This document shows, one piece after another, positions 19,867 through 39,257 of a stretch of DNA of 44,782 nucleotides. The notes below the pieces were generated by a model that searched no databases, was not told where the DNA came from, and saw nothing but the letters and a program-made list of their open reading frames with translations. Source of the stretch: Patescibacteria group bacterium. Its GTDB lineage: Bacteria; Patescibacteriota; Minisyncoccia; 2-02-FULL-40-12. The stretch's first letter is position 1. Each line of letters begins with the position of its first letter. Position numbers and translations under genes: made by a program. The stretch spans positions 1 through 44,782 of the forward strand of contig JBBTUA010000006.1 of the NCBI GenBank assembly GCA_038063995.1, given 5' to 3'.

Positions 19867-20871
19867 ATGGCACGGAAAATCGGCATAGATCTAGGAACAA
19901 CCAATACGCTTGTTTTTGTTCCGGGAAACGGAATAAGAATCAACGAGCCTTCAGTGGTGGCTATTTCTTTATTTGATAACCGCATCTTGGCCGTGGGAAA
20001 TTTGGCTAAAGAAATGGTCGGTCGGGCGCCAGACACTATTTCCGTAGTCCGGCCCTTAAAAGACGGCGTTATTGCAGATTATAAAGTGACCCAGGCGATG
20101 ATCAGGTATTTTATCAATAAGTCGTTCAATAAATTCAACTTTTTGAAAAAAGAAATTTTGATCTCGGTTCCGGCGGCCATAAATTCAACTGAAAGAAGAG
20201 CGGTGATTGAAGCCGGGATGAACGCAGGCGTCAAAGCGGTTTATCTGGTTAAAGAGCCGGTGCTTGCGGCAATAGGAGCAGGCATTCCGATCAACTCTTC
20301 TTACGGTCATATGGTGGTTAATATAGGCGGCGGCACGACAGAGGTGGCGATAATAAGCCTTGGCGGCATAGTGGCTTCTGCCGGAGTCAGAGTAGCCGGA
20401 AATAAAATAGATCAGGGGATTATTGATTATGTTAAGAAAAAGCACAATCTGGCCATAGGCGAGAGAACAGCGGAACTTATTAAAATAAACATCGGAACAG
20501 CCATAAGGGTTTCCAACGAGGAAACAATATCAATAAGAGGGAGAGATTTAATTACCGGCCTGCCTAAAACAATTGATTTAACTTCAAACGAAGTGAATGA
20601 GGCCATTCAGGAACAGTTAAACGAAATCAGCCAGGTGGTTAAGCGTGTTTTGCAGGAGACTCCGCCGGAGCTCTGCGCCGATATAATCGAGCGGGGGATT
20701 ACGCTTACTGGCGGCGGAGCGCTTTTGAAGAATATGGATGTATTTATCACCCGCGTGACCGGAGTGTCGGCAAAAACTGCCGACGACCCGCTTCTTTGCG
20801 TCGCCAAAGGAACTGGAGTGGTTTTGGAAAACTTAGAAATTTATAAGAAGAATATAATTACTCGAAGGTAG
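19867..20871 (+). CDS. mreB: Rod shape-determining protein MreB
   Basis: IGIDLGTTNT, NEPSVVA, RPLKDGVIAD, NIGGGTTEVA, LTGGGALL. Confidence 0.96.
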   Translation: MARKIGIDLGTTNTLVFVPGNGIRINEPSVVAISLFDNRILAVGNLAKEMVGRAPDTISVVRPLKDGVIADYKVTQAMIRYFINKSFNKFNFLKKEILISVPAAINSTERRAVIEAGMNAGVKAVYLVKEPVLAAIGAGIPINSSYGHMVVNIGGGTTEVAIISLGGIVASAGVRVAGNKIDQGIIDYVKKKHNLAIGERTAELIKINIGTAIRVSNEETISIRGRDLITGLPKTIDLTSNEVNEAIQEQLNEISQVVKRVLQETPPELCADIIERGITLTGGGALLKNMDVFITRVTGVSAKTADDPLLCVAKGTGVVLENLEIYKKNIITRR

Positions 20872-21153
20872 CCGTAAACATACAATCTAGACCTCTCGGG
20901 TATAAATAATTTATTCTCGCCCTTTTCTGCTCAATGCCTTTCAGGAAACGCTCGGCCTCATACATCTTTTATACAAAGCTCAACTCCTGTCTTTAAGAAA
21001 AAACCCTCGCTCCTCGTTCGCCTCGCTACAAAGATTATCTCCTCAATACGGCTCGGCTCACGAGGTTCCTGATAAGGCATTACGCAGCGGGCTCGAAGAA
21101 TAGAAATTATTTATACCCCTGCGGCTCTAATCTAAAGATAAATGTTTGCGGCT
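20870..21153 (-). repeat. Large structured intergenic element, type B copy 1
   Basis: Terminal IR AGCCGTAAACAT/ATGTTTGCGGCT, inner IR GGGTATAAATAATTT/AAATTATTTATACCC, core AAACCCTCGCTCCTCGTTCGCCTCGCTACA shared with 32060 and (reversed) 39141. Confidence 0.85.
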
Positions 21154-21197
21154 GACTGCTTGTAAAAAATTTTGTTCTTCGATTTAATATGAAAAGG

Positions 21198-21301
21198 CCG
21201 CAAGCTTATCTAAAAGATTTTGAATGGGGATTATTTATTTGATGAACAAAGAGAGAAGAAGGAGGCTATGCCCGAGAGGCTTTTTTTCTGAACGCTTGCG
21301 G
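21198..21301 (+). repeat. Degenerate structured element facing away from type B copy 1
   Basis: IR CCGCAAGC/GCTTGCGG; TATGCCCGAGAGGCTTT is the reverse complement of the type B arm AAAGCCTCTCGGGTATA with 1 mismatch. Confidence 0.55.
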
Positions 21302-21312
21302 TTATACTATAT

Positions 21313-22452
21313 ATGAAAATTGCTTTAGTTCATGATTGGCTTACGCGGCTGGGGGGTGCGGAAAGAGTTGTCATCGCTTTTCATAAAATTTTTCCGGAAG
21401 CTCCGATTTATACTCTTTTTTACGACAAGAAATTTGTTTCTCAAAATCTGCCCGAGGCAAAAATAGTTCCTTCGTTTCTGCAAAAAGTCCCGAATATAAA
21501 AAAGCTCCATCCCTGGTTTAAAGTCATTATGCCTGCGGCCGTAGAGTCTTTTGATCTTTCAAGTTTTGATTTGGTTATTTCGTCGAGCCATGAAGTCAGC
21601 CATGGTGTTTTGACAGGTCAAAACACAAAGCATATCTGCTTTTATCACAGCCCTTCCAGGCTTTTATGGGATAGAGGCATCGAGTACATCAAGGATTTTA
21701 AAGAAAGAGGGCGAAGTCCTTTTAAAATTTCTTTAATCAGATTGGGTCAGCATTTTCTGCGGCTTTGGGATAGGTCTGCCAGCTTGAGGCCGGATATTAT
21801 TCTGGCAAATTCAGAACATATTTCTCAAAGAATCAAAAAATATTACGGACGGGAAGCAAAAGTGGTTTATCCGCCGGTAGAAATAAATGGGAAGCTTGCT
21901 TTAAATTCAGAAACATCCAAGAAGGATTACTTTTTGATTGTTTCCCAGCTCTACCCTCATAAGAATATTGATTTGGCGATCGAGGCTTTTAAGAAAATTC
22001 CGGAGATAAATCTTGCGATAATAGGTGAAGGCCCGGAATACAAAAATTTAAAATTTAAAATTGAAAATTTAAAATTAAAGAATGTAAAGCTTTTGGGCTT
22101 TGTTCCAGATAAAGAACTGCCTGTTTATTATCAAGGCTGCTTGGCCTACCTTATTTGCAACGAAGAAGATTTCGGAATATCGCCGGTTGAGGCAATGTCT
22201 TATGGTAAGCCGGTTTTGGCTTATAAATCAGGCGGAGCAGTCGAAACAATCAAAGAAGGCCTGACTGGGGAGTTTTTTACAAGCCTAACTAAAGAAGAGC
22301 TTGCCAAGGCTTTGAGTTTGATTCAAAAAAATATAGAAAGCGGCAAATATAGTCCTGAATTGATAAAAAAACACTCTGAAAAATTCGGTTTTGAGCGGTT
22401 TAAAAACGAGATTCTGGATATAATCCGTAATTTAGGGTACAATTATAATTAA
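21313..22452 (+). CDS. Glycosyltransferase family 4
   Basis: KIALVHDWL, GGAERV, EEDFGISPVEAMSYGKPV. Confidence 0.93.
   Translation: MKIALVHDWLTRLGGAERVVIAFHKIFPEAPIYTLFYDKKFVSQNLPEAKIVPSFLQKVPNIKKLHPWFKVIMPAAVESFDLSSFDLVISSSHEVSHGVLTGQNTKHICFYHSPSRLLWDRGIEYIKDFKERGRSPFKISLIRLGQHFLRLWDRSASLRPDIILANSEHISQRIKKYYGREAKVVYPPVEINGKLALNSETSKKDYFLIVSQLYPHKNIDLAIEAFKKIPEINLAIIGEGPEYKNLKFKIENLKLKNVKLLGFVPDKELPVYYQGCLAYLICNEEDFGISPVEAMSYGKPVLAYKSGGAVETIKEGLTGEFFTSLTKEELAKALSLIQKNIESGKYSPELIKKHSEKFGFERFKNEILDIIRNLGYNYN
22043..22077 (+). repeat. Heptamer tandem repeat (AAAATTT)x5 inside the CDS
   Basis: AAAATTT AAAATTT AAAATTG AAAATTT AAAATTA, encoding NLKFKIENLKLK. Confidence 0.75.
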
Positions 22453-23661
22453 ATGAGATTTAAGGTACTAGTACCTGTTATTTTAATTTCGCTTGTCGCA
22501 GGTTTTTTTGGCGGCGTCCAGTTTCAAAAAAGCCAGGAACCCATACCTAGCGGATTAAGAGAATTGATCAATAAAGATGTCGGTCAGCCAGAGGCCGTTG
22601 ATTTTAGTTTGTTTTGGGATGCCTGGAATCTGGTTCATGAAAGATATGTTGATCGCGGAGAACTCGATACTCAAAAAATGGTTTTCGGGGCCATAGAAGG
22701 AATGGTTAAAAGCATCGATGATCCATTTACTGTTTTTCTGGAAGCCGATGAAAGTTCAAGGTTAAGAGAGGAAATAAGCGGCGAGTTTGCCGGAGTGGGC
22801 ATAGAAATCGGGGTAAGAGACGAGGTTCTTACTGTTATTGCTCCTTTAGAAGATACGCCGGCGGATAAAGCCGGTATAATTGCCGGAGACAGAATATTAA
22901 AGATAAACGGCGAATCGACTGTTGGGATCAGTTTGGAAGACGCCGTTTCTAAAATAAGAGGCCGAAGAGGAACAAAAGTGACTTTAAGCATTTCCAGAAA
23001 GTTGGACAGCCGTGAAGAAACCAAAGATGTGGAATTGACCAGGGAAAAAATAAAAATTCCGACGGTTAAATGGTCGGAAATTCAGCCCGGAATCGGATAT
23101 ATCCAATTATTCAGTTTTAATCAAATAGCTAAAGGGGAATTTGATAAAGCAATTGGAGAACTAAAAAAGAAGGGAGCGGATCAAAAACTAATTTTTGACT
23201 TGAGGAATAATCCGGGCGGGCTGCTTGATCTGGCAATAGATATTTCAAGCTACTTTTTGGACCCGGGTCAGGTTGTAGTCATTGAGGATTTTGGAGAAGG
23301 GCAAAGGAAAGAGCTTAAGGCGAAGCCAAACGGAAGCCTAAAAAATACGAAAGTCGTGATTTTAATAAATAAAGGCTCGGCTTCAGCCTCGGAGATAGTT
23401 GCCGGTGCTTTAAGCGACAATAAAGGAGTAAAGTTGATAGGCGAAAAAACCTTTGGTAAAGGTTCGGTTCAGCAAGTCGAAGAGTTAAGATTCAAAACGG
23501 CATTAAAGATAACAGTAGCAAAATGGCTTACGCCAAAAGGCCGCTCCATTTCCGATGAAGGCATCGAGCCTAATATTAAAGTTGAAAGAGTAGAAGACGA
23601 TATTAAAAACGACCGCGATCCGCAATTGGATAGAGCGGTGGAAGAAATCAAAAAACTATGA
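22453..23661 (+). CDS. S41 carboxyl-terminal processing protease
   Basis: PDZ GVGIEI, DLRNNPGG, SASASEI, TFGKGSVQ. Confidence 0.94.
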   Translation: MRFKVLVPVILISLVAGFFGGVQFQKSQEPIPSGLRELINKDVGQPEAVDFSLFWDAWNLVHERYVDRGELDTQKMVFGAIEGMVKSIDDPFTVFLEADESSRLREEISGEFAGVGIEIGVRDEVLTVIAPLEDTPADKAGIIAGDRILKINGESTVGISLEDAVSKIRGRRGTKVTLSISRKLDSREETKDVELTREKIKIPTVKWSEIQPGIGYIQLFSFNQIAKGEFDKAIGELKKKGADQKLIFDLRNNPGGLLDLAIDISSYFLDPGQVVVIEDFGEGQRKELKAKPNGSLKNTKVVILINKGSASASEIVAGALSDNKGVKLIGEKTFGKGSVQQVEELRFKTALKITVAKWLTPKGRSISDEGIEPNIKVERVEDDIKNDRDPQLDRAVEEIKKL

Positions 23662-24101
23662 AAATAATTTTAACGGAAAATATAAAAGGGCTTGGCCAGA
23701 TAGGGGAGACGGTAGAAGTGAAAAGCGGATATGCCAGGAATTTTTTAATGCCAAAAAAAATGGCTGTTTTGGCGACAGCCGAAAATATAAAAAAGGTGGA
23801 TGAAATAAAAATAGAAAAAAAAGAGGCCGCTCAGCAAAGCATTCAAGAAATGAAAGAAGTAGGGGAGAGGCTAAAGGATTTCAGGTTGATCATTGAAACA
23901 AAAGCTGACGAGAAAGGAAATTTATACGCCGGAATTAATTCAAAAACAATAAGCGATTTGTTGAAAGAGCGGGGGATAGAAGCTCCTCAGGAGTTTATTG
24001 AAATAGCGGCCGAACCAATAAAAAAGACCGGTATTTACCGAGTGATGTTTAAATTCTACGATATCGAAACAGGCTTTGAAGCAGAGGTGGTGGGACTTTG
24101 A
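23658..24101 (+). CDS. rplI: 50S ribosomal protein L9
   Basis: GLGQIGETVEVKSGYARNFLMP. Confidence 0.95.
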   Translation: MKIILTENIKGLGQIGETVEVKSGYARNFLMPKKMAVLATAENIKKVDEIKIEKKEAAQQSIQEMKEVGERLKDFRLIIETKADEKGNLYAGINSKTISDLLKERGIEAPQEFIEIAAEPIKKTGIYRVMFKFYDIETGFEAEVVGL

Positions 24102-24107
24102 GAACTT

Positions 24108-24380
24108 TTAAATAACGCTTATCACGCTGACAACTTTTTTGGAGCCGTCGAACTTTGATACTTTCTTTGTTCTGAATGATATTTTTCCTTCTCGAAGAGC
24201 GTAAATGGTGTCATCTCCGCCCATGCGAACTCCTAAACCGGGAACATATTTGGTTCCTCTTTGTCTGATTATAACGTTGCCTGGCTTCACAATCTGGCCT
24301 CCAAAGAGCTTAACCCCCAGACGTTTCGAGGCTGATTCCCGGGCGTTTTTTGATGATCCTTTTTGCTTTGTATGGGCCAT
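24108..24380 (-). CDS. rpmA: 50S ribosomal protein L27
   Basis: [30 protein letters not shown]. Confidence 0.96.
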
Positions 24381-24384
24381 AAAA

Positions 24385-24419
24385 TTATAATTTAGAATAT
24401 AGAATATAGAACTTAGAAA
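24385..24419 (+). repeat. Heptamer tandem repeat (WTAGAAY)x5 filling the divergent intergenic gap
   Basis: TTATAAT TTAGAAT ATAGAAT ATAGAAC TTAGAAA. Confidence 0.8.
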
Positions 24420-24421
24420 CT

Positions 24422-24802
24422 ATGATAGCAGAAGTTTTAAACATAATCAAGAAGAATCTATTTGTTATATTTTTGATGATTTTGATCTCATTTTTAAGTT
24501 TTCAGTTGGGCCGAATTTCGAAAACCGCGGTTGATCCAATAAAGATCGAGAAGGCAAGCATTCAGGAAATATTTAAAGATGATGCTGTAGTTAAAATTGA
24601 GGCCAATACAGACAGCCAAAGCGGAGGGATGGGGGATTTTGATTTTCGAGTAGTCGCCTCTAAGAAATCTCAAAGCCGCCGCTATCACTTTCTTTGGTGT
24701 CCCGGCGTTAAGAATATAAAAGAAGAGAATAAAATTATTTTTGATTCAGAAAAAGAAGCAATTGAAGCCGGGTACAGTTTAGCGGGGAATTGTAGTAAGT
24801 AG
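24422..24802 (+). CDS. Membrane-anchored protein with Ada metal-binding-like C-terminus
   Basis: N-terminal TM; VASKKS..YHFLWC...EAIEAGY....C. Confidence 0.7.
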   Translation: MIAEVLNIIKKNLFVIFLMILISFLSFQLGRISKTAVDPIKIEKASIQEIFKDDAVVKIEANTDSQSGGMGDFDFRVVASKKSQSRRYHFLWCPGVKNIKEENKIIFDSEKEAIEAGYSLAGNCSK

Positions 24803-24814
24803 TTTAGTCCGAGT

Positions 24815-25567
24815 CTATATCTTTGACACCCCGTTCTTAATCTTTTTAATCCAATGATCATGCTCCCAGACCCATAAATCTTTGCAGGCCAAGAAGGCCA
24901 TAAGGTCTTCTTCAAAATTTTCCAGTTCTTTTAGTTCGATCTCGCCTTTAAGTTCGCTGAATTTATGCTGACAGTTGAGGATTCCTCCTCTTACTTTTAC
25001 ATTTCCGCCTTTTTCTCTCATTTTTGCCCCGCATTTCAAACATTCTTTAGCTTGATCGATCCTTAAGACCCACCTTGTAGTAGGGAAGATGTTGTTTTCT
25101 TTGATAGCTTCAACATAGGCCGCAGTCTGGATTCCATAATCGCGATATATGGAATACGAAGTTTTAATATCCAAAACTCCAAGCCGTCCATTCAGTTTCC
25201 CGATAACATCTACCGTGCCGGCATACCATTTATTTTTAGAAATAACTCTTTCTTCAATTTTCATAGGAACTATTTCATTTTCTTTTTTAAATTCTAAAAA
25301 AGCATCAATCGCCGGTTTTATGGAGTGGGGGACAACCGCTTGTTTTCCGGAAAGTATTGCTTCAATCGTTTCGTGAATCAAAGTTCCTTCTTCGGCTGAT
25401 TTGGCTTTAACCGCCTCGCCGGCAGAAAAGCTTCCCTGATCAGCATAGAATTTATAAAGGGCTGGTTTGGCTTTGATGGAGACGATAGAGGTAACCCGAG
25501 GATACCAAACGCCGTCTATTTCATATCCGGATTTGCCTTTAAAGTGATTTAAATCAGCGTAGAACAT
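24815..25567 (-). CDS. PD-(D/E)XK (RecB/Cas4-like) nuclease with a Zn-ribbon insert
   Basis: YPRVTSI, GTLIH, AGTVD, DIKTS, Q..AY; CLKC...CQH. Confidence 0.8.
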   Translation of the reverse strand: MFYADLNHFKGKSGYEIDGVWYPRVTSIVSIKAKPALYKFYADQGSFSAGEAVKAKSAEEGTLIHETIEAILSGKQAVVPHSIKPAIDAFLEFKKENEIVPMKIEERVISKNKWYAGTVDVIGKLNGRLGVLDIKTSYSIYRDYGIQTAAYVEAIKENNIFPTTRWVLRIDQAKECLKCGAKMREKGGNVKVRGGILNCQHKFSELKGEIELKELENFEEDLMAFLACKDLWVWEHDHWIKKIKNGVSKI

Positions 25568-25714
25568 TTTTTGTTATATTAGTAGAATAAAGCCTTTTTA
25601 CTTTATTAGAAAGAGCTAAAATTTCCAAATGTTGATAACAGGGGATTGACCCTATATTCAGATATTATAGACTGGGTATAATACCTCTAACACTCAATAC
25701 ATTATTAAATACCT

Positions 25715-26203
25715 ATGCCCTATCCGTCAAAAAGTAAAAAAGTTGGAGAATTCTATAAGAGAGCATTTAAAGATTTAGTTATAAAACTTTATTGTAAAGA
25801 TAAGTTATCTAGCTTAGAAATTGCGGAAAAGTTTTTAAAAGAAGCTAAAGTTTCACCATCCCCTCGATATATACAACGCATCATTCAATTATTGGGTAAA
25901 TCCCGTAATTTCAGCGAAGCTTTCACCCTTGCTATTAAAAAGGGTCGAAAAAGTTACGATAGCTTAAGAAAACCCATTAAAGCATCTATTTTAAGAAAAG
26001 GAATTGATTTAAGGCAAAGATATTAAATTTTGAAAAGAGATAATTTTAAATGTGTGTTATGCGGGAATACTGCTAAAGAAGTTCGGCTTGAAATTGACCA
26101 TATAACTCCGGTAGTTAATGGCGGCAATAATAATCTATATAACTTAAGAACTTTATGTGTTCTTTGTAATCGTGGTAAAAAATTCAGCGAAAATGAAAAA
26201 TAA
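25715..26203 (+). pseudogene. HNH endonuclease with N-terminal helical domain, interrupted by in-frame TAA at 26024-26026
   Basis: Same frame continues RY*ILKRDNFKCVLCG...LEIDHITPVVNGGNNNLYNLRTLCVLCNRGK to TAA 26201-26203. Confidence 0.85.
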
Positions 26204-27149
26204 ATCGAAAAATACGATTGTCCTCCCCTATCTTGATGATTTTTTATTGCATTTGCAGTCAAACAACTATTCTGACGAAACTATATACAACTACGAACGG
26301 GATCTACTAGTTTTTGAAAACTTCCTTAATGAGTCCCCTATTCCGTTTAATAAGATTAACAAAAGAATCGTCGAATCTTATAAAGCATATTTAGCTTCGA
26401 TTGACCGGGAAACGCCTATTAAAGCAAGTGTCGAAAAAAAACTAGGCAGTTACTCAACAAACAGGTTCTTATCCTCACTGAGGTCATACTTCAGATACCT
26501 TATTAAAATGGACTACCCCTCCCCTATTCCGCCTGATGCCATTACTTTAATTAAAAAAGAAAAAAAAATTCCCAAAGTTCCGGAGTTCCAAGATACAGTG
26601 AAGTTGATAGAGTCCCCTTCGCAATTAGAGAAAAATCAAATTATAGCCAAAAGGAATCGTGCAATCTTAGAAGTCTTTTTTTCCACTGGTATAAGGATTT
26701 CTGAACTGGTGAATTTGAAGTTGAGTCAGATCAACAAAGAAGGGCAAATTTATATTTTAGGCAAAGGCAAAAAAGAAAGATTCGCTTACTTAACGCCAAG
26801 AGCTTTTCGTCATCTGAAAGAATATCTTAAAACCCGTAACGATGAATCAGCATACGTATTTATACCTTATAGTGGCCGAAATAAAGCAATGAAAGATAAG
26901 AAAGTTTCAACTAACTATATCCAGTATAAAATTAAACAATATCGCGAGATACTAGGTATAAATGTGCCTATATCTCCGCATGCTTTAAGAAGAGCCTTTG
27001 CTACATACTTAGCCGAATCAGGGGCAAGTCCAGCGGCTATTCAAATACTGTTAGGCCACGAGTCTTTGGATACAACAACACGCTATGTTCAAATTTCTAG
27101 CCGATACGCAAAAAAAGTTCATGAAAAATTCCATCCGTTAAAGGAGTAA
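26193..27149 (+). CDS. XerC/D-like tyrosine recombinase
   Basis: Catalytic set present: TGIRISE, GKGKKER, HALRR, LLGH, TTRY. ATG 26193 overlaps the end of the HNH frame. Confidence 0.92.
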   Translation: MKNKSKNTIVLPYLDDFLLHLQSNNYSDETIYNYERDLLVFENFLNESPIPFNKINKRIVESYKAYLASIDRETPIKASVEKKLGSYSTNRFLSSLRSYFRYLIKMDYPSPIPPDAITLIKKEKKIPKVPEFQDTVKLIESPSQLEKNQIIAKRNRAILEVFFSTGIRISELVNLKLSQINKEGQIYILGKGKKERFAYLTPRAFRHLKEYLKTRNDESAYVFIPYSGRNKAMKDKKVSTNYIQYKIKQYREILGINVPISPHALRRAFATYLAESGASPAAIQILLGHESLDTTTRYVQISSRYAKKVHEKFHPLKE

Positions 27150-28391: not shown

Positions 28392-28392
28392 A

Positions 28393-31089: not shown

Positions 31090-31134
31090 ATATTGTATTC
31101 TAACCTATATTTAACATCGATTCCAACGACGAGT

Positions 31135-31863
31135 ATGAGAATTTCCAGCGGATTTACTAAAATCGGCAAAGAGATCGGCAGGTTCAAAGAAAAGAAGCCT
31201 GATAGCGGCATTCATGGACCGGTGCATGCCTTGGCTAAAGAGATTTCTGAAACATTCGGGGAGCCTAAAAAATTCCCTATGTATCTGGGGATAATAAAAA
31301 ATATCGGGCTTAAAAGGGCTTATGAAATATTCTCAAAAATCAGGCAGTCGAAAAGCATAAAAGATCCGGGAAAATTATTTGTCTATGAATCGCGCTACAA
31401 AATGGAAATCGTAAAAAAACCGGCAGAAATTTTAACCAAAAAATTGGCTGATGTTGACTTGATAACGGCTCAATTGAAAAAGGTTATTTTAAAAATGAAA
31501 AAGATAATGAGAGAAAATAAGGGAATCGGTCTGGCGGCCAACCAAATCGGTTTGAATATGAAGCTTTTTGTTATAGATGAGGAATTGGCCAAAGAATACA
31601 ATGCGCCGGATGTTTATATAAATCCGGAGATTAAGCCTTACCCGCCTGCTGGACGGGCAGGTTCAAAAGACACTGAAGAAATGGAAGAAGGATGTTTAAG
31701 CATTCCGGAAACTTGGCTGAAAATTAAAAGGTCGAAAAAAGTTAAAGTTAAAACCGTAGATGAAGAAGGAAAAAAGCATAAATTCATCGCCAAAGGAATG
31801 CTTGCCCGAGTTCTGCAACACGAATATGACCATCTGCAGGGGGTTTTGATAACGGATAAATAA
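31135..31863 (+). CDS. def: Peptide deformylase with a fused ~89-aa N-terminal domain (deformylase part from ATG 31402)
   Basis: GIGLAANQIG, EGCLS, QHEYDHLQG; no stop between 31135 and 31402. Confidence 0.85.
   Translation: MRISSGFTKIGKEIGRFKEKKPDSGIHGPVHALAKEISETFGEPKKFPMYLGIIKNIGLKRAYEIFSKIRQSKSIKDPGKLFVYESRYKMEIVKKPAEILTKKLADVDLITAQLKKVILKMKKIMRENKGIGLAANQIGLNMKLFVIDEELAKEYNAPDVYINPEIKPYPPAGRAGSKDTEEMEEGCLSIPETWLKIKRSKKVKVKTVDEEGKKHKFIAKGMLARVLQHEYDHLQGVLITDK
31641..31661. mobile_element. 21-bp in-frame palindromic insertion in def (PPAGRAG)
   Basis: CCCGCCTGCTGGACGGGCAGG imperfect hairpin; removal gives INPEIKPYSKDTEEMEEGC. Confidence 0.65.
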
Positions 31864-31866
31864 TAG

Positions 31867-32173
31867 CTCGGACACACCCAATTTCTAAATAATAAAGCCT
31901 CTCGGGTATAGTTGTTTCAGAAACGTTCGGTCTCATACATCTTATATTATAATTATCTTATCTCCTGTTTATCAGAATATGAATAAGAATTCATATAATA
32001 ACTGCGTTCGGTTGAAATGAGTAAATTTATTTACTCATTTCTCCCTCACTTGTTATTATAAACCCTCACTCCTCGTTCGCCTCGCTACATATCTTATTCT
32101 TCTCTTAACGGCTCGGCTCACGAGGTTCTTCAACAACCATACCCTGCGGCTTTATTAGAAATTGGCTATATCC
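31867..32173 (-). repeat. Large structured intergenic element, type B copy 2, with an ~81-bp nested hairpin insert
   Basis: IR CCAATTTCTAA/TTAGAAATTGG; shared core at 32060-32128; extra sequence at 31979-32059 relative to the other copies. Confidence 0.85.
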
Positions 32174-32239
32174 TCCATCAGTCATCTTTCAGATTCCGTC
32201 TTGTCAGAATTTCGCCGGCGAAGCCCGGAGAATATTTAC

Positions 32240-32276
32240 AAAAACGATGAAGCCCGCGAGAAGCGTGGCTTCATCG
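32240..32276 (-). terminator. Intrinsic terminator of the small minus-strand ORF
   Basis: CGATGAAGCC...GGCTTCATCG with an A-run on the left (U-tail on the minus strand). Confidence 0.7.
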
Positions 32277-32289
32277 CGGGCGTTGGTTT

Positions 32290-32505
32290 TTAGCGAAGCA
32301 GCATTGCTCCTGCTAGAGCTAATACGGCGCCGCCAACACGAAAGTTCCAACGAGCAAAGCTTGCACGAGGATGATGAATAGATTCATGCAAGCTTTGCGA
32401 GGTTATGATAAACCCAGCAAGAATTACTGCTAACTCCCACCTTCCGGCAACGACCGGTAAGAGCACGAACAGAGGGAAAATCCATCGGTTGAATATGTGG
32501 TTCAT
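32290..32505 (-). CDS. Small orphan membrane protein
   Basis: 71 aa, hydrophobic segments, AAGGAGGT SD, own terminator. Confidence 0.65.
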   Translation of the reverse strand: MNHIFNRWIFPLFVLLPVVAGRWELAVILAGFIITSQSLHESIHHPRASFARWNFRVGGAVLALAGAMLLR

Positions 32506-32586
32506 TTATGCACCTCCTTTTTCTAATCTATAGTTTATTTTTACTTTTGTCAACGGCGGATTTTGGAGCGAAGTTTTAATATAGTA

Positions 32587-32789
32587 AGCGAAAAGCGGCG
32601 AGCAATATCAATTTTTGAATTGGGAAGTATCTTGCAAATTGCCGGAATCTTTATGAAAATTTGCCGATGACAAATCTACGGGGGAGGTATCCTGATTTGT
32701 CGGCAAATTGAATAAAGTAACGGAGATTCAATTTACAAGAAGGGCTACCCTTATGAAGGAATTGATATTGCTCGCGCAAGGTTTTCGCT
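32587..32789 (+). repeat. Large structured intergenic element, type A copy 1
   Basis: Nested IRs AGCGAAAA/TTTTCGCT, GCGAGCAATATCAATT/AATTGATATTGCTCGC, AATTTGCCGA/TCGGCAAATT, GACAAATC/GATTTGTC. Confidence 0.88.
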
Positions 32790-32797
32790 ACATATAA

Positions 32798-33673
32798 ATG
32801 AAACTTTTATTTTTCGGCACATCAGACTTCTCAAAGCCGGTTTTTGAGGTCTTAAAAAAATGTGATTATTCCCCTATTTTGTGGAATCAGCAGGGTTCTT
32901 TTGACGACTTTAAAAAAATAAATCCCGATATCTGCATTGTCGCCGCTTACGGAAAAATAATTCCGAAAGATTGGCTTGAAATTCCTAGATATGGATTTTT
33001 GAATATCCATCCCTCGCTTCTGCCAAAATACCGCGGGGCCTCCCCTATCCAAACCGCAATTTTAAACGGCGATAAAGAATCCGGTATTACTATAATTTTG
33101 ATGGATGAAAAAATAGACCATGGGCCGATACTCGCTTCGCGAAAATTTTCAATTTTCAACAGCAATTCCGCAACGAGCCGCAAGCGGCTCGGCGGAACCT
33201 TCGACGAGCATTTTAAATTTTCAAAATATAAAGAATTGGAAAAAGAATTGGCAGAACTGGGAGCACAGCTTCTTATTGAAACCTTGCCAAAGTGGATTGC
33301 CGGCGGGATAAAATCAAAAGAGCAAAATCATAATCAGGGAACTTATACTAAAAAATTATCGTGGGAAGATGGTAAAATTGACTGGTCAAAAACTGCGGTA
33401 GAAGTTGAGCGGCAAATCAGAGCTTTGAATCCGGAGCCGGGTACTTGGACCACATGGAACAACAAAGTTTTAAAAATTATTGAGGCCGAATCAATAGAAT
33501 CAAAATTGGCCGGTGAACCTGGCTTGGTGATTAAGGTTGAAAGTGAGGTTTTGGTGAAATGCGGGGTTAATGCCTTGATTCTTAAAAAAGTCCAGCTTGA
33601 AGGCGGGAAACCGCTTTCAATCAAAGATTTCCTAAACGGCCATAGAAATTTCGTCGGTTCCAAATTGACTTAG
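32798..33673 (+). CDS. fmt: Methionyl-tRNA formyltransferase with an in-frame insert
   Basis: FFGTSDF, VAAYG, NIHPSLLPKYRGASPI, DHGPIL, IRALNPEPG. Confidence 0.95.
   Translation: MKLLFFGTSDFSKPVFEVLKKCDYSPILWNQQGSFDDFKKINPDICIVAAYGKIIPKDWLEIPRYGFLNIHPSLLPKYRGASPIQTAILNGDKESGITIILMDEKIDHGPILASRKFSIFNSNSATSRKRLGGTFDEHFKFSKYKELEKELAELGAQLLIETLPKWIAGGIKSKEQNHNQGTYTKKLSWEDGKIDWSKTAVEVERQIRALNPEPGTWTTWNNKVLKIIEAESIESKLAGEPGLVIKVESEVLVKCGVNALILKKVQLEGGKPLSIKDFLNGHRNFVGSKLT
33159..33209 (+). mobile_element. 51-bp in-frame hairpin insertion in fmt, inside an AATTTTC heptamer array
   Basis: ACAGCAATTCCGCAAC-GAGCCGCAAGCGGCTC-GGCGGAACCTTCGACGAGC; arms near-identical to 36622-36669. Confidence 0.88.
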
Positions 33674-33882
33674 CGAAAAGCTTTCCTCGGCATATGTTTT
33701 CGAAAACCGCTCACAAAACCCAGCGAGTTTTGCTCGCTGTACTTGCGACCTCCTAAAGTCAAGACTAGCCCTCGCTCCACCCAGCTAAGCTGGGCTTCGC
33801 TCGGTCTTCATACAATCTTGACTTACCCTGCTAGTCGGTCTCCAGAACTTTTCGAGAAACATATGCCTCGCGCTTTTCGCTA
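33671..33882 (-). repeat. Large structured intergenic element (type C, with A-like ends and B-like modules)
   Basis: IRs TAGCGAAAAGC/GCTTTTCGCTA, GGCATATGTTT/AAACATATGCC, AAGTCAAGA/TCTTGACTT; modules CCCTCGCTCC and GCTCGGTCTTCATACA. First TAG is the fmt stop. Confidence 0.85.
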
Positions 33883-33980
33883 GATTAAGAATCAAAACTC
33901 GGCTGTACCCTTGAGCTCTGATTATTTTGAAACTATACGTGTTTTATATGCCTTTACTTTTCGGTCAAAAAGTATAAAAT

Positions 33981-34178
33981 TAGAAAGCGGCTCGGCATCT
34001 AAATTTCTGAGTCTGGGGAGTCGTCTTAGAAAATAGCCGCTATCTTTATGAAAATTTGCCGAATGATAAATCTATGGCGGAGGTACCCTAATTTATCGGC
34101 AAATTGAATAAAGTGGCGCGCTATTTTCAAGAAGGGGCACCAAAGGAAGAAATTTTGATGCCGAGCGCAAGCTTTCTA
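33981..34178 (+). repeat. Large structured intergenic element, type A copy 2
   Basis: IRs TAGAAAGC/GCTTTCTA and GCTCGGCATC/GATGCCGAGC; ATCTTTATGAAAATTTGCCGA and TCGGCAAATTGAATAAAGT identical to copy 1. Confidence 0.88.
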
Positions 34179-34185
34179 CTTATTC

Positions 34186-34755
34186 ATGTTAGGAATGAAC
34201 GATCTAAAAATCGGGACTTTTTTTATAATAGAGGGACAGCCTTACGAAGTTTTGTATTCCCAGCATCTTAAAATGCAGCAGCGCCGGCCGGTAATGCAGA
34301 CTAAAATAAAAAACCTTTTGACCGGAAAGGTAATTGAGAAGAATTTTCAGCAGTCCGACTACTTCGAAGAAGCCGACATTCAGAAAAAAGAAGTTAAGTT
34401 TTTATACTTTCACAGGAACGAATTCTGGTTTTCAGAACCAAATGATCCATCCAAAAGATTTAAATTGGGTGAAGATATTATTGGCGAATCAGCTAAATTT
34501 TTAAAATCCAATACATCCATAATCTCGCTTCTTTTCAATGGCCAAATCATAAATATCGAGCTTCCGGTTAAAATTGATTTTAGAGTTATAGAGGCTCCGC
34601 CATCAAGCCGCGGCAATACCGCCCAAGGAGGGACAAAGCAGGTTAAAATCGAAACTGGCGCAATGATTAATGCACCTCTTTTTATTGAAGAAGGAGACAT
34701 TATCAAAATAAATACCCAAACCGGCGAATACGCTGAAAGAGTTGAAAAGAAATAA
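34186..34755 (+). CDS. efp: Elongation factor P
   Basis: KIKNLLTG, IELP, GNTAQGGTK, ETGA, PLFIEEGD, GEYAER. Confidence 0.95.
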   Translation: MLGMNDLKIGTFFIIEGQPYEVLYSQHLKMQQRRPVMQTKIKNLLTGKVIEKNFQQSDYFEEADIQKKEVKFLYFHRNEFWFSEPNDPSKRFKLGEDIIGESAKFLKSNTSIISLLFNGQIINIELPVKIDFRVIEAPPSSRGNTAQGGTKQVKIETGAMINAPLFIEEGDIIKINTQTGEYAERVEKK

Positions 34756-34760
34756 TTTAT

Positions 34761-34789
34761 TTGACCTCTCTATAACAAAAAAATAGAAT
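34761..34789 (+). promoter_or_regulatory. Putative leaderless sigma70 promoter
   Basis: TTGACC-17-TAGAAT, ATG 7 nt downstream. Confidence 0.65.
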
Positions 34790-34796
34790 AAATCCA

Positions 34797-36056
34797 ATGC
34801 CCGTCACTCTGATTAAAAAGCTAAAAAGGATCTGGCGCTATCTTGGAGCAGGATTGATCACCGGAGCGGCTGATGACGATCCGGCCGGAGTTACTACTTA
34901 CGCAATTGCCGGCACCAGACTCGGTTTTTCGTCTTTATGGACGGCTTTTTTCACTTATCCTTTGATGACGGCAATTCAGGAAATGTCCGCCAGAATCGGC
35001 ATAATCACGAAGATGGGGTTAGCCGGAGTGTTAAAAAAGCATTATCCTTTTGTTCTTCTTATTTTTATCGCTCTTTTAATGGTTTCAAGCAATATTTTTA
35101 ATATCGGGGCTGATATTTCCGGTATGAGCGCGGCCACGAATCTTTTAATTCCTTTCATTTCGCCGAAAATTTTTGCTTTGCTCTATTCTGTTTTGATCAT
35201 TTATTTGATGATTGCTTGGGATTTTAAAAAAATGATCAAGTCCTTTAAATGGTTAAGCTTCACTCTTATCTTTTATGCGATTGCCGCTTTTTTCGTATCC
35301 CACGACTGGGGGCAAGTTTTCAGATTTATCATCACTCCGGAGCTTACTTTGAACAAAGAAACCATTTCGCTGATCATTGCCGTTTTCGGGACGACTCTTT
35401 CGCCGTATCTTTTTTTCTGGCAGACGACCGAAGAAGCGATTGAAGAAAAAAACCACCATCACGAGCATCACCATATCCACGATGAAAAGCTTAAAAAAGA
35501 AATAACTCATATGGAGAAGGATGTCGCTTTTGGAATGTTTTTTTCAAATTTAATTATGTTTTTCGTAATGATGCTGGCCGCCACTCTTTTTTATAATAAA
35601 ACCGTAACCATTGAAACGATAGACGAGTTGTCGCGGCTGCTTGAGCCTCTGCTTGGAAAATTGGGCCAGATAGTTTTTACCTTTGGAATTGTCGGAACGG
35701 GATTGATGGTGATTCCGATTTTGTCTCTTGGCTCGGCCTATATTTTGGCGGAAACTTTTGGCTGGAACGAGGGAATGGGCAAGTTTCACCGAGCCAAAGA
35801 GTTTTATTTGGTTATAATAGTTTCAACGGCTTTGGCCCTTTTAATGAATTACTTCGGCTTTAATCCCGTAAAGTTGTTGTTTTACACTGCTTTGTTTCAC
35901 GGCATCATATCCCCTCCTTTAATCTTGACTATTCTTTCAATTTCAAATAATAAAAAAATAATGGGAACTTATGTAAATTCAAGCATTATCAATATTTTGG
36001 GATTTGGAGCTTTTCTGATTATGACCGTGGCAGTGATAATGTTTTTCATTTTATGA
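34797..36056 (+). CDS. NRAMP-related divalent metal transporter
   Basis: GAADDDPAG, QEMSARIG, GTTLSPYLFFWQ, His-rich loop. Confidence 0.88.
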   Translation: MPVTLIKKLKRIWRYLGAGLITGAADDDPAGVTTYAIAGTRLGFSSLWTAFFTYPLMTAIQEMSARIGIITKMGLAGVLKKHYPFVLLIFIALLMVSSNIFNIGADISGMSAATNLLIPFISPKIFALLYSVLIIYLMIAWDFKKMIKSFKWLSFTLIFYAIAAFFVSHDWGQVFRFIITPELTLNKETISLIIAVFGTTLSPYLFFWQTTEEAIEEKNHHHEHHHIHDEKLKKEITHMEKDVAFGMFFSNLIMFFVMMLAATLFYNKTVTIETIDELSRLLEPLLGKLGQIVFTFGIVGTGLMVIPILSLGSAYILAETFGWNEGMGKFHRAKEFYLVIIVSTALALLMNYFGFNPVKLLFYTALFHGIISPPLILTILSISNNKKIMGTYVNSSIINILGFGAFLIMTVAVIMFFIL

Positions 36057-36063
36057 TTTTTTT

Positions 36064-37518
36064 ATGAAAATTTTAAATACTTTATCCGGCCAGAAAGAGG
36101 AATTTGAGCCGATTCAAGATAAAAAAGTCGGGATGTTCGTTTGCGGCCCGACGGTTTATGACTGGTCTCATATCGGACATGCAAGGACCTATGTAATTTT
36201 TGATATTATTTCAAAATACCTTCGCTCCAAAGGCCATAAAGTCAAATTCATAATGAACATCACGGATATAGACGATAAAATAATTGAGCGAGCCAGAAAT
36301 GAAGGCAAGTCTTGGAAAGAAATCGCTGATTTTTTTGAAAAAGAATTTATGGCTGATATGAATGCCCTTTATATTAAAGTTGATAAATTTGCCAAAGCGA
36401 CTGACCACATTAAAGAAATAATCAAACAAATAAGTGCTTTGGTTAAAAAGAGCTACGCCTATGAAATTGAAGGCGAAGGCGTGTATTTTGATATTTCGAA
36501 ATTCGAAGATTACGGAAAGTTATCAAAAAGAACTGTTGAACAGGCCGAAGACGCTGTATCCCGTATAGACGAATCGGTTAGTAAACGGAATAAAGGCGAT
36601 TTTGTCTTATGGAAGTTTTCAACAGCGATTCCGCAACCCGCCTATGGCGGGGCGGAACCTTCGACGAGCACAGCAGACGAGCCTTCGTGGGATAGCCCAT
36701 GGGGCAAAGGCCGCCCGGGCTGGCATATTGAAGATACTGCTATTTCAGAAAAATATCTTGGAAAGCAATATGAAATCCATTGCGGCGGCCGGGACCTGGC
36801 TTTTCCCCATCATGAAGCAGAAATAGCTCAGCAGGAAGCGGCTTCAGGTAAAAACCCTTTTGTTAAATATTGGCTTCATTCAGGATTTGTTACGGTTGAC
36901 GGCCAGAAAATGTCCAAGTCATTGGGAAATTTTATAACAATAAGAGAAGTTCTCCAAGAATATCCTCCGGAAGCTTTGCGTTTTATGATTGCATCTTCTC
37001 ATTATCGCTCCCCTGTTGCTTACAGCGAAGATTTAATAAAATCGAGCGAAGCGGCTATCCAAAGAATCATTGAGCTGAAAGACAAGCTCGATTTGCTCAA
37101 GAAAAGCTCAAATGCGGAAGATTTAGATATTGGGGTTGAAAACCTGATAAAAACCGCCAGAGAAAAATTCGAGGAAAAAATGGATGATGACTTTAATACG
37201 CCGGAAGCAGTAGCCGTGATTTTTGATTTTATAAGGATGGTAAACGGGTTGATTGACGAGAACAAGATCAGCAAGAAATCAGCGGATAAAATATTAAAAT
37301 TCATTGAAGAGTTAGATAAAGTTCTTGGAGTAATCCCTGAAAAAAAATCTATTCCGGCAGAGATTTCGAAGCTGGTTCAAACCAGAGAAAAATTGAGAAA
37401 AAATAAAGAATGGCTGGAAGCTGATAAAATAAGGGACCGGATTCAGGAAGGGGGCTACTCAATCGAAGATACTTTGTACGGGCCATTAGTGAAGAAGAGC
37501 TTAGAACATAGAATTTAG
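36064..37518 (+). CDS. cysS: Cysteinyl-tRNA synthetase with a 16-aa insert
   Basis: CGPTVY, HIGH, GRPGWHIE, FPHHEAE, KMSKSLGN. Confidence 0.97.
   Translation: MKILNTLSGQKEEFEPIQDKKVGMFVCGPTVYDWSHIGHARTYVIFDIISKYLRSKGHKVKFIMNITDIDDKIIERARNEGKSWKEIADFFEKEFMADMNALYIKVDKFAKATDHIKEIIKQISALVKKSYAYEIEGEGVYFDISKFEDYGKLSKRTVEQAEDAVSRIDESVSKRNKGDFVLWKFSTAIPQPAYGGAEPSTSTADEPSWDSPWGKGRPGWHIEDTAISEKYLGKQYEIHCGGRDLAFPHHEAEIAQQEAASGKNPFVKYWLHSGFVTVDGQKMSKSLGNFITIREVLQEYPPEALRFMIASSHYRSPVAYSEDLIKSSEAAIQRIIELKDKLDLLKKSSNAEDLDIGVENLIKTAREKFEEKMDDDFNTPEAVAVIFDFIRMVNGLIDENKISKKSADKILKFIEELDKVLGVIPEKKSIPAEISKLVQTREKLRKNKEWLEADKIRDRIQEGGYSIEDTLYGPLVKKSLEHRI
36622..36669 (+). mobile_element. 48-bp in-frame hairpin insertion in cysS
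   Basis: ACAGCGATTCCGCAAC-CCGCCTATGGCGG-GGCGGAACCTTCGACGAGC; removal gives WKFSTADEPSW. Confidence 0.88.
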
Positions 37519-37594
37519 AATATAGGAATTAGAAATTTTCAACACCCTATCCCCTAGCAGAAGAACATAGAATTTAGTAATTAGAACTTAGGAC
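37501..37594 (+). repeat. Two heptamer (WTAGAAY) arrays at the cysS-dnaB junction
   Basis: TTAGAAC ATAGAAT TTAGAAT ATAGGAA TTAGAAA, then ATAGAAT TTAGTAA TTAGAAC TTAGGAC. Confidence 0.8.
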
Positions 37595-37595
37595 T

Positions 37596-38939
37596 ATGAC
37601 GAATCTGCCGGACAAACTGCCGCCTCAAAATCTGGAAGCCGAAAGATCGGTTCTGGGCGCTATTTTAATTGATAAGAACTCGATTGAAAAAGTCGTTGAT
37701 ATGCTCAAGGCGGAAGACTTTTACAGCCGTCAGAATCAGTTGATTTACGAGGCAATGGTCAAGCTTCTTGAGAAAAATGACCCGATAGATATTCTTACGG
37801 TGACCAATAGGCTTGAGGAATTTAGCCAGCTTGAAGATGCGGGCGGAGCGGCTTACCTTACTTCGCTCCTTGCCGCCACTCCGACCTCGGCTCATATTTT
37901 AAATTACGCCAAGATAGTTCAAAGAAAGAAAATTTTGAGAGATTTGATTGATTCAGCCCACAAAATTATGAGCCTCGGCCATCAAGAAGACGAAAGCATC
38001 GAAAAAATTCTTGATCAGGCGGAGCAAAAACTCTTTTCCGTGTCCCAACGTTCAATCACCCAGGAATTCGTAGCGATTAAAGAAGAACTGCACGAAGCTT
38101 TTGAGAGGCTGGAAAGACTGCATAAGGGCGATGGCGCCTTAAGAGGAGTTCCAACCGGTTTTGTGGATTTGGATAATATGCTGGCCGGACTCCAAAGGTC
38201 TGATCTAGTGATTCTCGGAGCGCGGCCGTCGCTGGGTAAAACTACTTTTGCCTTGGATATAGTCAGGAATGTGGCCAGAAAAGAAAATACAGGAGTCGGC
38301 ATATTCAGTCTTGAGATGTCTAAAGATCAGGTGATTGACAGGATTCTGGCGGCTGAAGCAGGAGTAGGGCTTTGGAAATTGAGAACCGGCCACCTGACCA
38401 GTTCCGGAGATTTTAATGATTTTTCAAAAATTTCGCTTGCCTTAGATACTCTTTCAAAACTGCCAATTTTTGTAGATGACACTCCTTCGCCCACGGTTTT
38501 GCAAATCAGAGCAATGGCGAGACGGCTTAAAGCCAGAAATGAACTGGGGCTTTTAGTCGTGGATTATCTCCAGCTGGTTCAGCCTAGAAGCGACATTGAC
38601 GGCTATGTCCAACAGGTTACTGATGTAGCCAATTCTTTAAAAGCGCTTGCCCGAGAGTTGAATATTCCGATTATTGCCGTTTCCCAGCTTTCCCGAGCTG
38701 TTGAGGCGCGGCCTGACCAAAGGCCCAGGCTTTCTGATTTAAGAGAATCAGGGGGAATTGAACAGGCTGCTGATTTGGTTATGTTCATCCATCGCGAAGA
38801 CAGGGTCAGGCAGAATTCAGACAAAAAAAATATCGCCGAGATCATAGTTGCTAAACATCGAAACGGCCCCATCGGCAGTATGGAGCTCTATTTCGACGAA
38901 GAAGAAGTGAGTTTCAAGAATCTGGCGAAGAGTATCTAA
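37596..38939 (+). CDS. dnaB: Replicative DNA helicase
   Basis: PPQNLEAE, GARPSLGKT, SLEM, VDYLQL, SQLSR, LRESGGIEQAAD, KHRNGP. Confidence 0.97.
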   Translation: MTNLPDKLPPQNLEAERSVLGAILIDKNSIEKVVDMLKAEDFYSRQNQLIYEAMVKLLEKNDPIDILTVTNRLEEFSQLEDAGGAAYLTSLLAATPTSAHILNYAKIVQRKKILRDLIDSAHKIMSLGHQEDESIEKILDQAEQKLFSVSQRSITQEFVAIKEELHEAFERLERLHKGDGALRGVPTGFVDLDNMLAGLQRSDLVILGARPSLGKTTFALDIVRNVARKENTGVGIFSLEMSKDQVIDRILAAEAGVGLWKLRTGHLTSSGDFNDFSKISLALDTLSKLPIFVDDTPSPTVLQIRAMARRLKARNELGLLVVDYLQLVQPRSDIDGYVQQVTDVANSLKALARELNIPIIAVSQLSRAVEARPDQRPRLSDLRESGGIEQAADLVMFIHREDRVRQNSDKKNIAEIIVAKHRNGPIGSMELYFDEEEVSFKNLAKSI

Positions 38940-38972
38940 GTGTAGCCGCAAATTCTATTATCTATCAGAACT

Positions 38973-39032
38973 CTCGGACATACCCAATTTCTAAATAATA
39001 AAGCCTCTCGGGTATAGTTGTTTCAGAAACGT
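38973..39032 (-). repeat. 60-bp left-arm fragment of the type B element
   Basis: 59/60 identical to 31867-31926. Confidence 0.9.
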
Positions 39033-39074
39033 ATAGATACGAAACCCATAAAACAATATCATTTTTTTAAATCT

Positions 39075-39257
39075 AGCTGCCCGTTTGGCGATGCCTTCTC
39101 AGGAACCTCGCGAGCCGAGCCGTAAGTAGAAGATAAACTATGTAGCGAGGCGAACGAGGAGCGAGGGTTTATTCTGATAAACAGGGAACTACCTAATTTA
39201 TTACAAGTTGTATGAGGCCGAGCATTTCCTGAAAGACATTGCCAAAAAAGGGCAGCT
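39075..39257 (+). repeat. Large structured element, type B, inverted relative to the other copies
   Basis: IR AGCTGCCC/GGGCAGCT; TGTAGCGAGGCGAACGAGGAGCGAGGGTTT (39141-39170) is the exact reverse complement of 21001-21030. Confidence 0.87.

Follow-up and report, generated by a model that had tools for sequence, protein, structure and literature searches.

Palindromic repeats of bacterial genomes have been described under several names. In the accounts consulted here, repetitive extragenic palindromic (REP) sequences, bacterial interspersed mosaic elements (BIMEs) and REP doublets forming hairpins (REPINs) appear as extragenic palindromes in alternating or inverted arrangement, BIMEs being mosaics with linker motifs (PMC2817692, PMC3333891, PMC3337134, PMC3116915). 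In the parts of a review that deal with them, bacterial MITEs (miniature transposable elements with inverted repeats; Correia, ERIC, pneumococcal BOX/RUP/SPRITE) form clusters with nested insertions and Correia elements can invert, while Rickettsia palindromic elements (RPEs) occur in a reduced genome, with no known transposase, and lie in frame inside protein genes (PMC10969869). The literature searched for repeats of this kind in Patescibacteria or the candidate phyla radiation turned up nothing relevant. Here we analyze a stretch of 44,782 nucleotides, the whole contig C6 (JBBTUA010000006.1) of a Patescibacteria group bacterium, referred to below as the window. An earlier note, made from its letters alone, had noticed large modular hairpin elements standing between genes in outward-facing pairs with a consistent strand rule.

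A genome-wide map upholds that observation. In gaps holding more than one element, in this genome, sister-genome loci and metagenome loci together, an element with pyrimidine loops on the + strand is followed by one with purine loops in 47 of 54 cases, and the reverse order was not found (0 of 54). The elements are probably non-autonomous inverted doublets of hairpin modules, similar to REPINs, BIMEs and MITEs, which sit at gene boundaries and are homogenised module by module.

Gaps with several elements keep one order

The genome of the window (G000) comprises 395,389 bases in 12 contigs and is 85% complete; it was compared with seven sister genomes (G001-G007), relatives of this organism having genomes of 0.5-0.7 Mb. 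Its DNA is also present in groundwater metagenome runs. Self-comparison gave 16,708 repeated bases, about 4% of the genome, much of it from hairpin elements, and many contig ends fall inside these repeats. The elements belong to six related families of imperfect palindromes, 200-300 nt long with common end motifs and swapped cores, which we named A, B, C, F, G and H. Hidden Markov models (HMMs) built from this genome gave 52 hits on 10 of its 12 contigs (395 kb).

Each HMM hit was scored by the loops of its + strand, as Y where these are rich in pyrimidines and as R where they are rich in purines, and genes were called crudely as long open reading frames (ORFs). Left out of the count were duplicate loci, any hit that scored below 30 bits or fell within an ORF, an internal C fragment that is unrelated, and those ORFs that elements cover for the most part. 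A pattern scan for the A core in metagenomes yielded 121 loci; 20 were removed as near-identical to sequence already in the set, and 62 new loci were used for the pair rule. The order Y then R holds in 17 of 18 gaps of this genome, in 12 of 13 among the sister-genome loci and in 18 of 23 multi-element gaps of the metagenome loci, with no reverse order in any of the three sets. The other seven gaps hold two same-strand fragments of one family, and look like one element split by insertion. These counts are not independent trials, because the copies are related and many of the loci were found via A.

At least eight partner combinations obey the rule, and one family may stand on either side in opposite orientation: B(+) is the left element between mreB and the glycosyltransferase gene GT4 in this genome, and B(-) is the right element at that place in G006. 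Some H copies bear the A apex reversed, so that the + orientation of A corresponds to the - orientation of the other families. At metagenome locus L208 (1933-2539) two outward-facing A elements, A(-) then A(+), form a pair; thus A can form both halves of a doublet.

Among 115 elements in gaps with a boundary on each side, singles and pair members counted together, 105 have their purine strand directed at the nearer gene, with 7 exceptions and 3 ties. One of the exceptions, B(-) in G006, vanishes if the adjacent 110-aa ORF is cargo within a pair. Single elements are common: 69 of 123 element-bearing gaps hold one recognised element, and many of these are cut by a contig end or may have a partner that the six models missed. 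Random orientation or mostly solitary copies had been named as the signs of a mistaken rule, and this refutation did not come about: orientation is not random, and 47 multi-element gaps hold a pair.

The neighbouring genes are unrelated housekeeping genes, pointing to no regulatory specificity. Likewise, in co-directional gaps (n=17), A stands at the start of the downstream gene in 10 and at the stop of the upstream gene in 7, which argues against a gene-specific regulatory role.

Elements of the window

All four gaps that had been singled out in the window (mreB/GT4, def/fmt, fmt/efp and dnaB/rplU) obey the left-pyrimidine, right-purine order. The gene names given to their flanks agree with Pfam, which identifies MreB, a group-1 glycosyltransferase (GT4), deformylase, formyltransferase, EF-P, DnaB and L21. 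Each of the four gaps folds as a long hairpin. Folding z scores against shuffles are -7.17 for 31864-32200 and -9.15 for 33664-34185, and weaker when a whole gap is folded, at -2.0 for mreB/GT4 and -2.36 for dnaB/rplU.

Directly after the mreB stop codon, HMM and folds place a B element in pyrimidine-loop orientation (core 20897-21118, outer stem 20873 to ~21160, + strand); further copies of B lie at window 39056-39266 (-) and on contig C5 at 78-299 (-). The right element of this gap is a partial G, its left arm reversed, in purine-loop orientation directly upstream of GT4 (21198-21305, HMM 21198-21278, - strand, G model positions 8-93). Between def and fmt, a C element with a B-like core and pyrimidine loops (31874-32174, +, by HMM and fold z) starts 10 nt past the def stop codon, and an A element with purine loops (32586-32790, HMM 32591-32786, +, by HMM and alignment) ends about 10 nt before the fmt start codon. 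The centre of this pair (32176-32585, -) contains a 48-nt module, a hairpin resembling a terminator and, on the minus strand at 32290-32505, an ORF of 71 aa, which matches no Pfam family and is possibly cargo of the pair. For this space, an intergenic gap with elements at 31867 and 32587 in the earlier note, the ORF is a correction.

Between fmt and efp, end motifs, fold and HMM define an F element with pyrimidine loops (33671-33888, HMM 33673-33885, +). It is followed by an A element with purine loops (33976-34182, HMM 33981-34177, +, by fold z, HMM and alignment) that ends a few bases before the efp start codon. After dnaB stands a left-arm fragment of C with pyrimidine loops (38973-39034, HMM 38982-39034, +), 98% identical to 31867-31926, and the reversed B at 39056-39266, seen by HMM and self-comparison and carrying purine loops on the + strand, abuts the 3' end of rplU.

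Elements end 0-20 nt from stop or start codons. At four loci the TAG of an F-type end (or CTA, on the other strand) is itself the stop codon of the adjacent gene: window 33671-33673 (fmt), C5 ~21991-21993, C8 15113-15115 and C10 95-97.

The window opens within an element. Positions 1-53 (+) are the right, 3' arm of an A in purine-loop orientation, cut by the contig start (A model positions 138-190), and positions 63-89 (-) are a reversed left arm of B, 89% complementary to 20908-20934, so that the junction of an A arm with a reversed B arm was read correctly from the letters. In this joined stretch, 1-89, the A part abuts a gene starting at 88, and identical copies of it lie at other contig ends.

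Shared modules and ends

The sharing of modules among types A, B and C, also proposed from the letters, is borne out for B and C by self-comparison and HMM, which show a common core; F is a separate family. A measures about 200 nt, and G and H about 220-270 nt. The end motif CAGAGCTCTCGGGTA lies at the left end of the pyrimidine-loop orientation, and its imperfect partner, with CCCTGCGGCTCT, at the right end; F and A have ends of the TAGCGAAAAGC type. With up to 2 mismatches, CAGAGCTCTCGGGTA occurs 6 times forward and 8 times reverse in this genome, and a control pattern 0 times. It stands on the left of gaps and its complement on the right, and the F ends are likewise inverted, showing that terminal inverted repeats are present. 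An exact scan of the species genomes for the end motifs gave 76 single scattered matches, which we read as chance. Viral contigs gave three matches to the end motifs, and a pattern of the A core gave three.

An asymmetric internal loop at the base of the stem is conserved across families together with the end motifs. Direct reading of this loop showed no simple tandem G.A motif, and no GTAG-type head was seen in the modules. A K-turn or box C/D fold, considered by eye for the apex of A and the basal loop of F, does not fit.

At the centre of three pairs lies a module with CGCCGGCGAAGCCC (window 32179-32226, contig C3 15445-15491, L029 ~2665-2690). This 48-nt module adjoins either the pyrimidine-loop or the purine-loop element. 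It is all that the central regions of three pairs, when compared, have in common, and a conserved cargo was rejected.

Folding of the two strands

Of the two strands it is the purine one that folds at lower energy, as seen in 30 of 31 copies drawn from all six families. On this strand purines make up 73.6% of unpaired bases (n=1970) and 50.0% of paired ones (n=4906), and the loops are composed of 45% A, 29% G, 18% U and 9% C. The enrichment of GCGAG, CGAA and CGAG reported for the purine strand is confirmed by counts of 24 v 6, 75 v 19 and 68 v 17 against the pyrimidine strand; together with GGAGG (23 v 2), which lies in the apical loop of many A copies, these motifs are 4- to 11-fold commoner on it.

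We aligned 25 copies of A from 7 genomes. The hairpin has 49 pairs, in which 95.4% of cells are paired; the figure is 84.0% for shuffles, none of 500 coming as high, and 31-50% for slid controls. Both sides have changed in 21 of the 49 pairs (6-9 in slid controls), and the covariation score is 0.358 vs 0.146 in shuffles. G.U cells number 71 and A.C cells 14, which indicates that pairing is maintained on the purine strand. That the elements are biased to one folding strand suggests the involvement of a transcript or of an intermediate in single-stranded form.

Elements in related genomes

The comparison with relatives whose flanking genes are adjacent, which the earlier note had called for, reveals empty gaps, overlapping genes or different pairs at orthologous sites. 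In four of the seven sister genomes mreB and GT4 adjoin, overlapping (ATGA or TAATG) in G001, G003 and G004 and standing 28 nt apart in G007. Elsewhere this boundary is filled by different doublets: this genome has B(+) and the partial G(-), G006 has A(-) and B(-), and G005 has F(+) and one half of an A(+). Similarly, fmt and efp overlap in G003 and lie ~30 nt apart in G006 and G007; they are separated by F(+)A(+) in this genome and by A(-)G(-) in G005, and in G004 the F+A pair upstream of efp is inverted. The spacing of def and fmt is 20 nt in G003 vs 934 nt in this genome, and on contigs of co-occurring relatives 34 other letters replace A upstream of fmt (joint 32583 to 32798). Together these comparisons show that doublets repeatedly colonised gene boundaries in this clade.

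One insert has the appearance of a whole unit. An 824-nt stretch 3' of efp in G006 (L029:2073-2896) is absent from its congener G001, and contains in order an A-arm fragment, the 110-aa ORF, a terminator, the shared module and B(-). The def/fmt unit of the window mirrors it, with C(+), the same module, the terminator-like hairpin, the 71-aa ORF and A(+). No relation was seen between the two cargo ORFs, and the 110-aa ORF likewise matches no Pfam family. A search for insertion-polymorphic pairs gave none with flanks of at least 93% identity and four candidates at 80%, one of them a clean insertion difference. Doublets can be homologous end to end (84% over 503 nt, 93.9% over 345 nt), yet single modules are 100% identical between different doublets (A over 196 nt; H with the left end of F over 272 nt), a combination that is consistent with modules being exchanged or converted.

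A and B each occur in six of the seven sister genomes and are absent from the most distant one, G002; G is mainly confined to the genome of the window. Three other families of the order, with 33 genomes, gave 0 matches to B and one weak match of 23 bases to A. Copy number per genome ranges from 0 to 20. In four metagenome runs from two studies, the summed contig depth over elements was several-fold that of the flanking genes. In a minority of copies the cores lie within a gene: B and F cores are in the GT4 frame at L038 3485-3655 (G006) and L039 466-592 (G005), where they add ~70-80 residues in the linker between two glycosyltransferase domains. These distributions agree with a likely lineage-restricted superfamily of non-coding mosaic hairpin repeats.

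Other repeats and genes of the genome

A second family of palindromes, about 52 nt long and GC-rich, has the stem CCCCGTTAGAGGC / GCCTCTAACGGGG. In the window it occurs at 7309-7360, within a murG-like ORF (6639-7832), and at 4802-4903, an intergenic copy split by ~45 nt of other sequence; it is also found on contigs C2, C3, C5, C10 and C12. Eight of ten distinct places are inside long ORFs, and these palindromes look like in-frame inserts in coding genes. A gap of 227 nt with small palindromes follows a transporter ORF of the major facilitator superfamily (MFS) at 4076-4699; it has only 207 aa, which match positions 6-171 of MFS_1, a model of 347 positions, and the gene may be truncated or split. 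A tandem short motif of the TTAGAATNTAGAA type stands at three gene boundaries (14694-14720, 24392-24418, 37494-37593). An 805-aa ORF (39742-42159, -) contains long runs of repeats with periods of 12 and 18 nt; Pfam gives it a single, weak match, to CarboxypepD_reg, and its relatives, 39-53% identical, are repetitive too.

Origin of the elements

We propose that the unit is a 200-300 nt imperfect palindrome with short terminal inverted repeats, an asymmetric basal loop and an exchangeable core. In this reading the modules stand mostly as inverted doublets, the pyrimidine-loop half before the purine-loop half, and some doublets enclose a spacer or a small ORF as cargo. Doublets may have been moved in trans by some enzyme. 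Their polarity would persist through insertion in either direction, through inversion (as seen at efp) and through loss of one half, which would leave singles. Modules may later have been exchanged between copies by recombination or conversion, giving the mosaic look while keeping polarity. Under this scheme the order Y then R needs no link to gene direction, replication or transcription, because inverted modules read Y then R on either strand.

Several observations weigh against this reading. Single elements also obey the rule, for which the doublet model needs remnants or unseen partners. No Logan contig spans a whole gap of the window, so the order of elements inside these gaps rests on the original assembly. 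Junctions compared across relatives show no consistent target-site duplication; TA, TAG or a 3-nt repeat is possible. The A-rich, C-poor loops of the purine strand, with the excess of G.U pairs, resemble functional structured RNAs, a feature that selfish DNA alone does not predict. Finally, no transposase emerged as a partner. A six-frame search for Y1_Tnp (PF01797), with controls that matched in 6 of 14 genomes, gave no match in any of five genomes (completeness 85-99%), one of them 99% complete, and searches of five genomes gave none to the TnpB zinc-ribbon (PF07282), DDE_Tnp_1, IS110, DDE_3 or DDE_Tnp_4. Transposase_mut gave one sub-threshold hit, in G001, and the search for Y2_Tnp (IS91-type), which left its own controls unmatched, is uninformative. 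The new metagenome loci encode 81 de-duplicated proteins within 2 kb of A, and not one of them is a transposase or a recombinase; 57 match ordinary, mostly housekeeping families and 24 match none. A transposase could sit in unassembled DNA, because the genome is 85% complete and its contigs break at repeats.

An IS481-like transposase (rve, HTH_32, HTH_28) was found in one of the five genomes, G001 (L032 2068-3162, -). Close to the end of a contig, its ORF continues into efp with no stop codon between, at the site where others have fmt/efp. It was rejected as a partner of the elements, being present in G001 alone and having no element hits beside it.

The main rival, which we judge unlikely, is that the elements are RNA structure modules selected by the host, with orientation fixed by selection on the expression of neighbouring genes. 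On this account the pyrimidine form past a stop codon would act as a 3' barrier, stabiliser or terminator, and the purine form before a start codon as a 5' stabiliser or ribosome stand-by site. The agreement of bounded singles with the rule, counted with pair members in the 105 of 115 elements, speaks for it, as do the compensatory changes and conserved G.U pairs of the A hairpin, the A-rich and C-poor unpaired bases of the purine strand, the GGAGG in many apical loops of A with its 23 v 2 strand bias, and the placement of element ends 0-20 nt from stop and start codons, the F end even supplying the stop codon at several loci. Rho was not found in the five genomes searched (Rho_RNA_bind in 0 of 5), so that hairpins may matter more for 3' ends; the same result excludes the version of this account in which C-rich loops are Rho loading sites or a Rho-dependent terminator.

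However, where the flanking genes converge or run in one direction, a read-through transcript has as its first form the pyrimidine one, which folds less well, and for the left element the better-folding purine strand would need transcription antisense to the upstream gene. Promoter-like sites in the gaps are not above shuffles (1 v 1.4, 9 v 5.2 +/- 2.2, 1 v 0.8). Two of them immediately precede elements with purine loops (33953-33980 and 39034-39062), the A copies showed no conserved -10 element upstream, and the gaps contain few classic terminator-like sites. At gathering scores of Rfam 15 the window matches two tRNAs only; 32472-35682 gave none at E<=1 either, a threshold applied to that stretch, the mreB/GT4 and dnaB/rplU gaps having been searched at gathering scores. 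Moreover, the same gene boundaries lack an element in sister genera, where the genes overlap, and the flanking genes are functionally unrelated.

More doubtful is a bolder form of the mobile reading, in which self-propagating structured single-strand elements, as purine-strand RNA or single-stranded DNA, spread without a classical transposase in genomes of 0.4-0.7 Mb, and the outward polarity is the footprint of that mechanism rather than of doublet symmetry alone. Candidate routes for such spread would be a housekeeping enzyme, either the single recombinase of Xer type or a nuclease of repair or replication, template switching driven by hairpins, or a resident reverse transcriptase (RT).

It is improbable that a strand-specific single-stranded DNA system is at work, in which the folded purine strand would be cut and joined by an HUH/Y1 enzyme (as in IS200/IS605 and REP-RAYT), or else by a tyrosine recombinase that acts on folded sites such as integron attC; target motifs placed symmetrically in palindromic targets would then account for the mirror orientation. 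One strand is indeed favoured in all six families, G.U pairs outnumber A.C pairs, the basal loop and end motifs are conserved, and one tyrosine recombinase gene per genome was found in four of five genomes (window 26157-27149). This single recombinase resembles the ordinary one-per-genome Xer type, however, Y1_Tnp and the TnpB domain are absent from the five genomes searched, and known HUH elements follow the replication direction whereas here both orientations occur within a few hundred bases. A correlation of the elements with HUH or tyrosine recombinase genes had been suggested; no HUH/Y1 gene was found in five genomes, and the only tyrosine recombinase found is the Xer-like gene of four of them. 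What remains of the composite, single-strand-structured REPIN-like element proposed in the earlier note is its modular build, its outward pairs, its REPIN/BIME-like arrangement and its one special strand (30 of 31 copies; G.U 71 v A.C 14), but not an HUH/Y1 enzyme.

Spread in the manner of short interspersed nuclear elements, with a folded purine-strand transcript reverse-transcribed by a resident RT and integrated, is very improbable. RVT_1 domains occur in seven of the eight genomes of the family, including this one (C12:15142-15738), and the loop composition and G.U pairs are RNA-like. The presence of RT does not track the elements, however, since G004 has many elements and no RT, and G002 has three RT matches and neither A nor B. 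Direct reading found no poly-A or other marks of retro-insertion. The RT of this genome, a 337-aa ORF on contig C12 (15142-15738, -), adjoins paired repeats of 100-200 nt (15587-15798 and 16335-16839), and looks like a diversity-generating retroelement.

An assembly artefact, in which mis-joined repeats give chimeric palindromes, can hardly be the explanation: contigs of this genome do end in repeats and Logan contigs do break inside elements, but the architecture recurs in seven separately assembled genomes and 62 further metagenome loci, and the pairs are diverged, not perfect palindromes, with hairpins that show compensatory evolution.

Streamlined tiny genomes are expected to be repeat-poor, yet about 4% is repeated here. 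Genes that overlap in sister genera are separated by the elements, which also provide stop codons, extend a protein by peptide segments and carry small ORFs. Their strict polarity, strong compensatory evolution and lack of a recognisable transposase make them a clean natural case for studying how REP- or MITE-like palindromes move and persist, and whether they turn into useful RNA or DNA structures. In practice they also break assemblies, and contigs end within them.

Comparison with known systems

Integron attC sites are palindromic but imperfect, and their function depends on how one particular strand folds. The elements described here are likewise imperfect palindromes with one special folding strand, but attC sites stand in same-direction arrays beside an integrase gene, and no array is present here. 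Elements of the IS200/IS605 type with HUH enzymes are oriented by replication direction. Unlike palindromes derived from them, our elements occur in both orientations within single gaps, and the five genomes searched gave no PF01797 or PF07282 match. As in a composite transposon, inverted modules flank a small ORF and a terminator at 31874-32790 and in the G006 insert (L029:2073-2896); in contrast to one, the cargo ORFs are unrelated, and movement as a unit would follow from a single presence/absence pair (G006 vs G001).

REP units are about 20-40 nt long and have a conserved GTAG-type head tetranucleotide. The modules here differ from them in length (200-300 nt) and in their ends, of the CAGAGCTCTCGGGTA and TAGCGAAAAGC types. 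As in the REP, BIME and REPIN sequences of enterobacteria and pseudomonads, the palindromes are inverted or alternating, here inverted in 47 of 54 gaps and in one fixed order, and as with REPINs the doublet, not the single palindrome, behaves as the unit and is lineage-restricted and vertically persistent. In contrast to REPINs, no RAYT/Y1 gene was found in the five genomes searched, and in contrast to all three some of the copies are found within genes or with an ORF as cargo.

The elements share with RPEs that they are palindromes in a reduced genome, without a transposase found and with in-frame copies (GT4 of G006 and G005). Compared by description rather than by sequence, RPEs are ~150 bp and mostly intragenic, whereas our elements are mostly intergenic and paired. 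With MITEs, as characterised in the relevant parts of the review (PMC10969869), they have in common that they are small, non-coding, multi-copy and hairpin-forming, with terminal inverted repeats, at gene boundaries and variably present between relatives. They differ from MITEs in pairing along their whole length and not at the ends only, and in having no parent insertion sequence with the same ends that we could find; no consistent target-site duplication emerged at the junctions compared. Those parts of the review (PMC10969869) report no strict pyrimidine-then-purine pairing rule for MITE families. Together, these likenesses indicate that "undescribed system", as the earlier note put it, is too strong a term, as REP/BIME sequences, MITE clusters and Rickettsia palindromic elements all come close.

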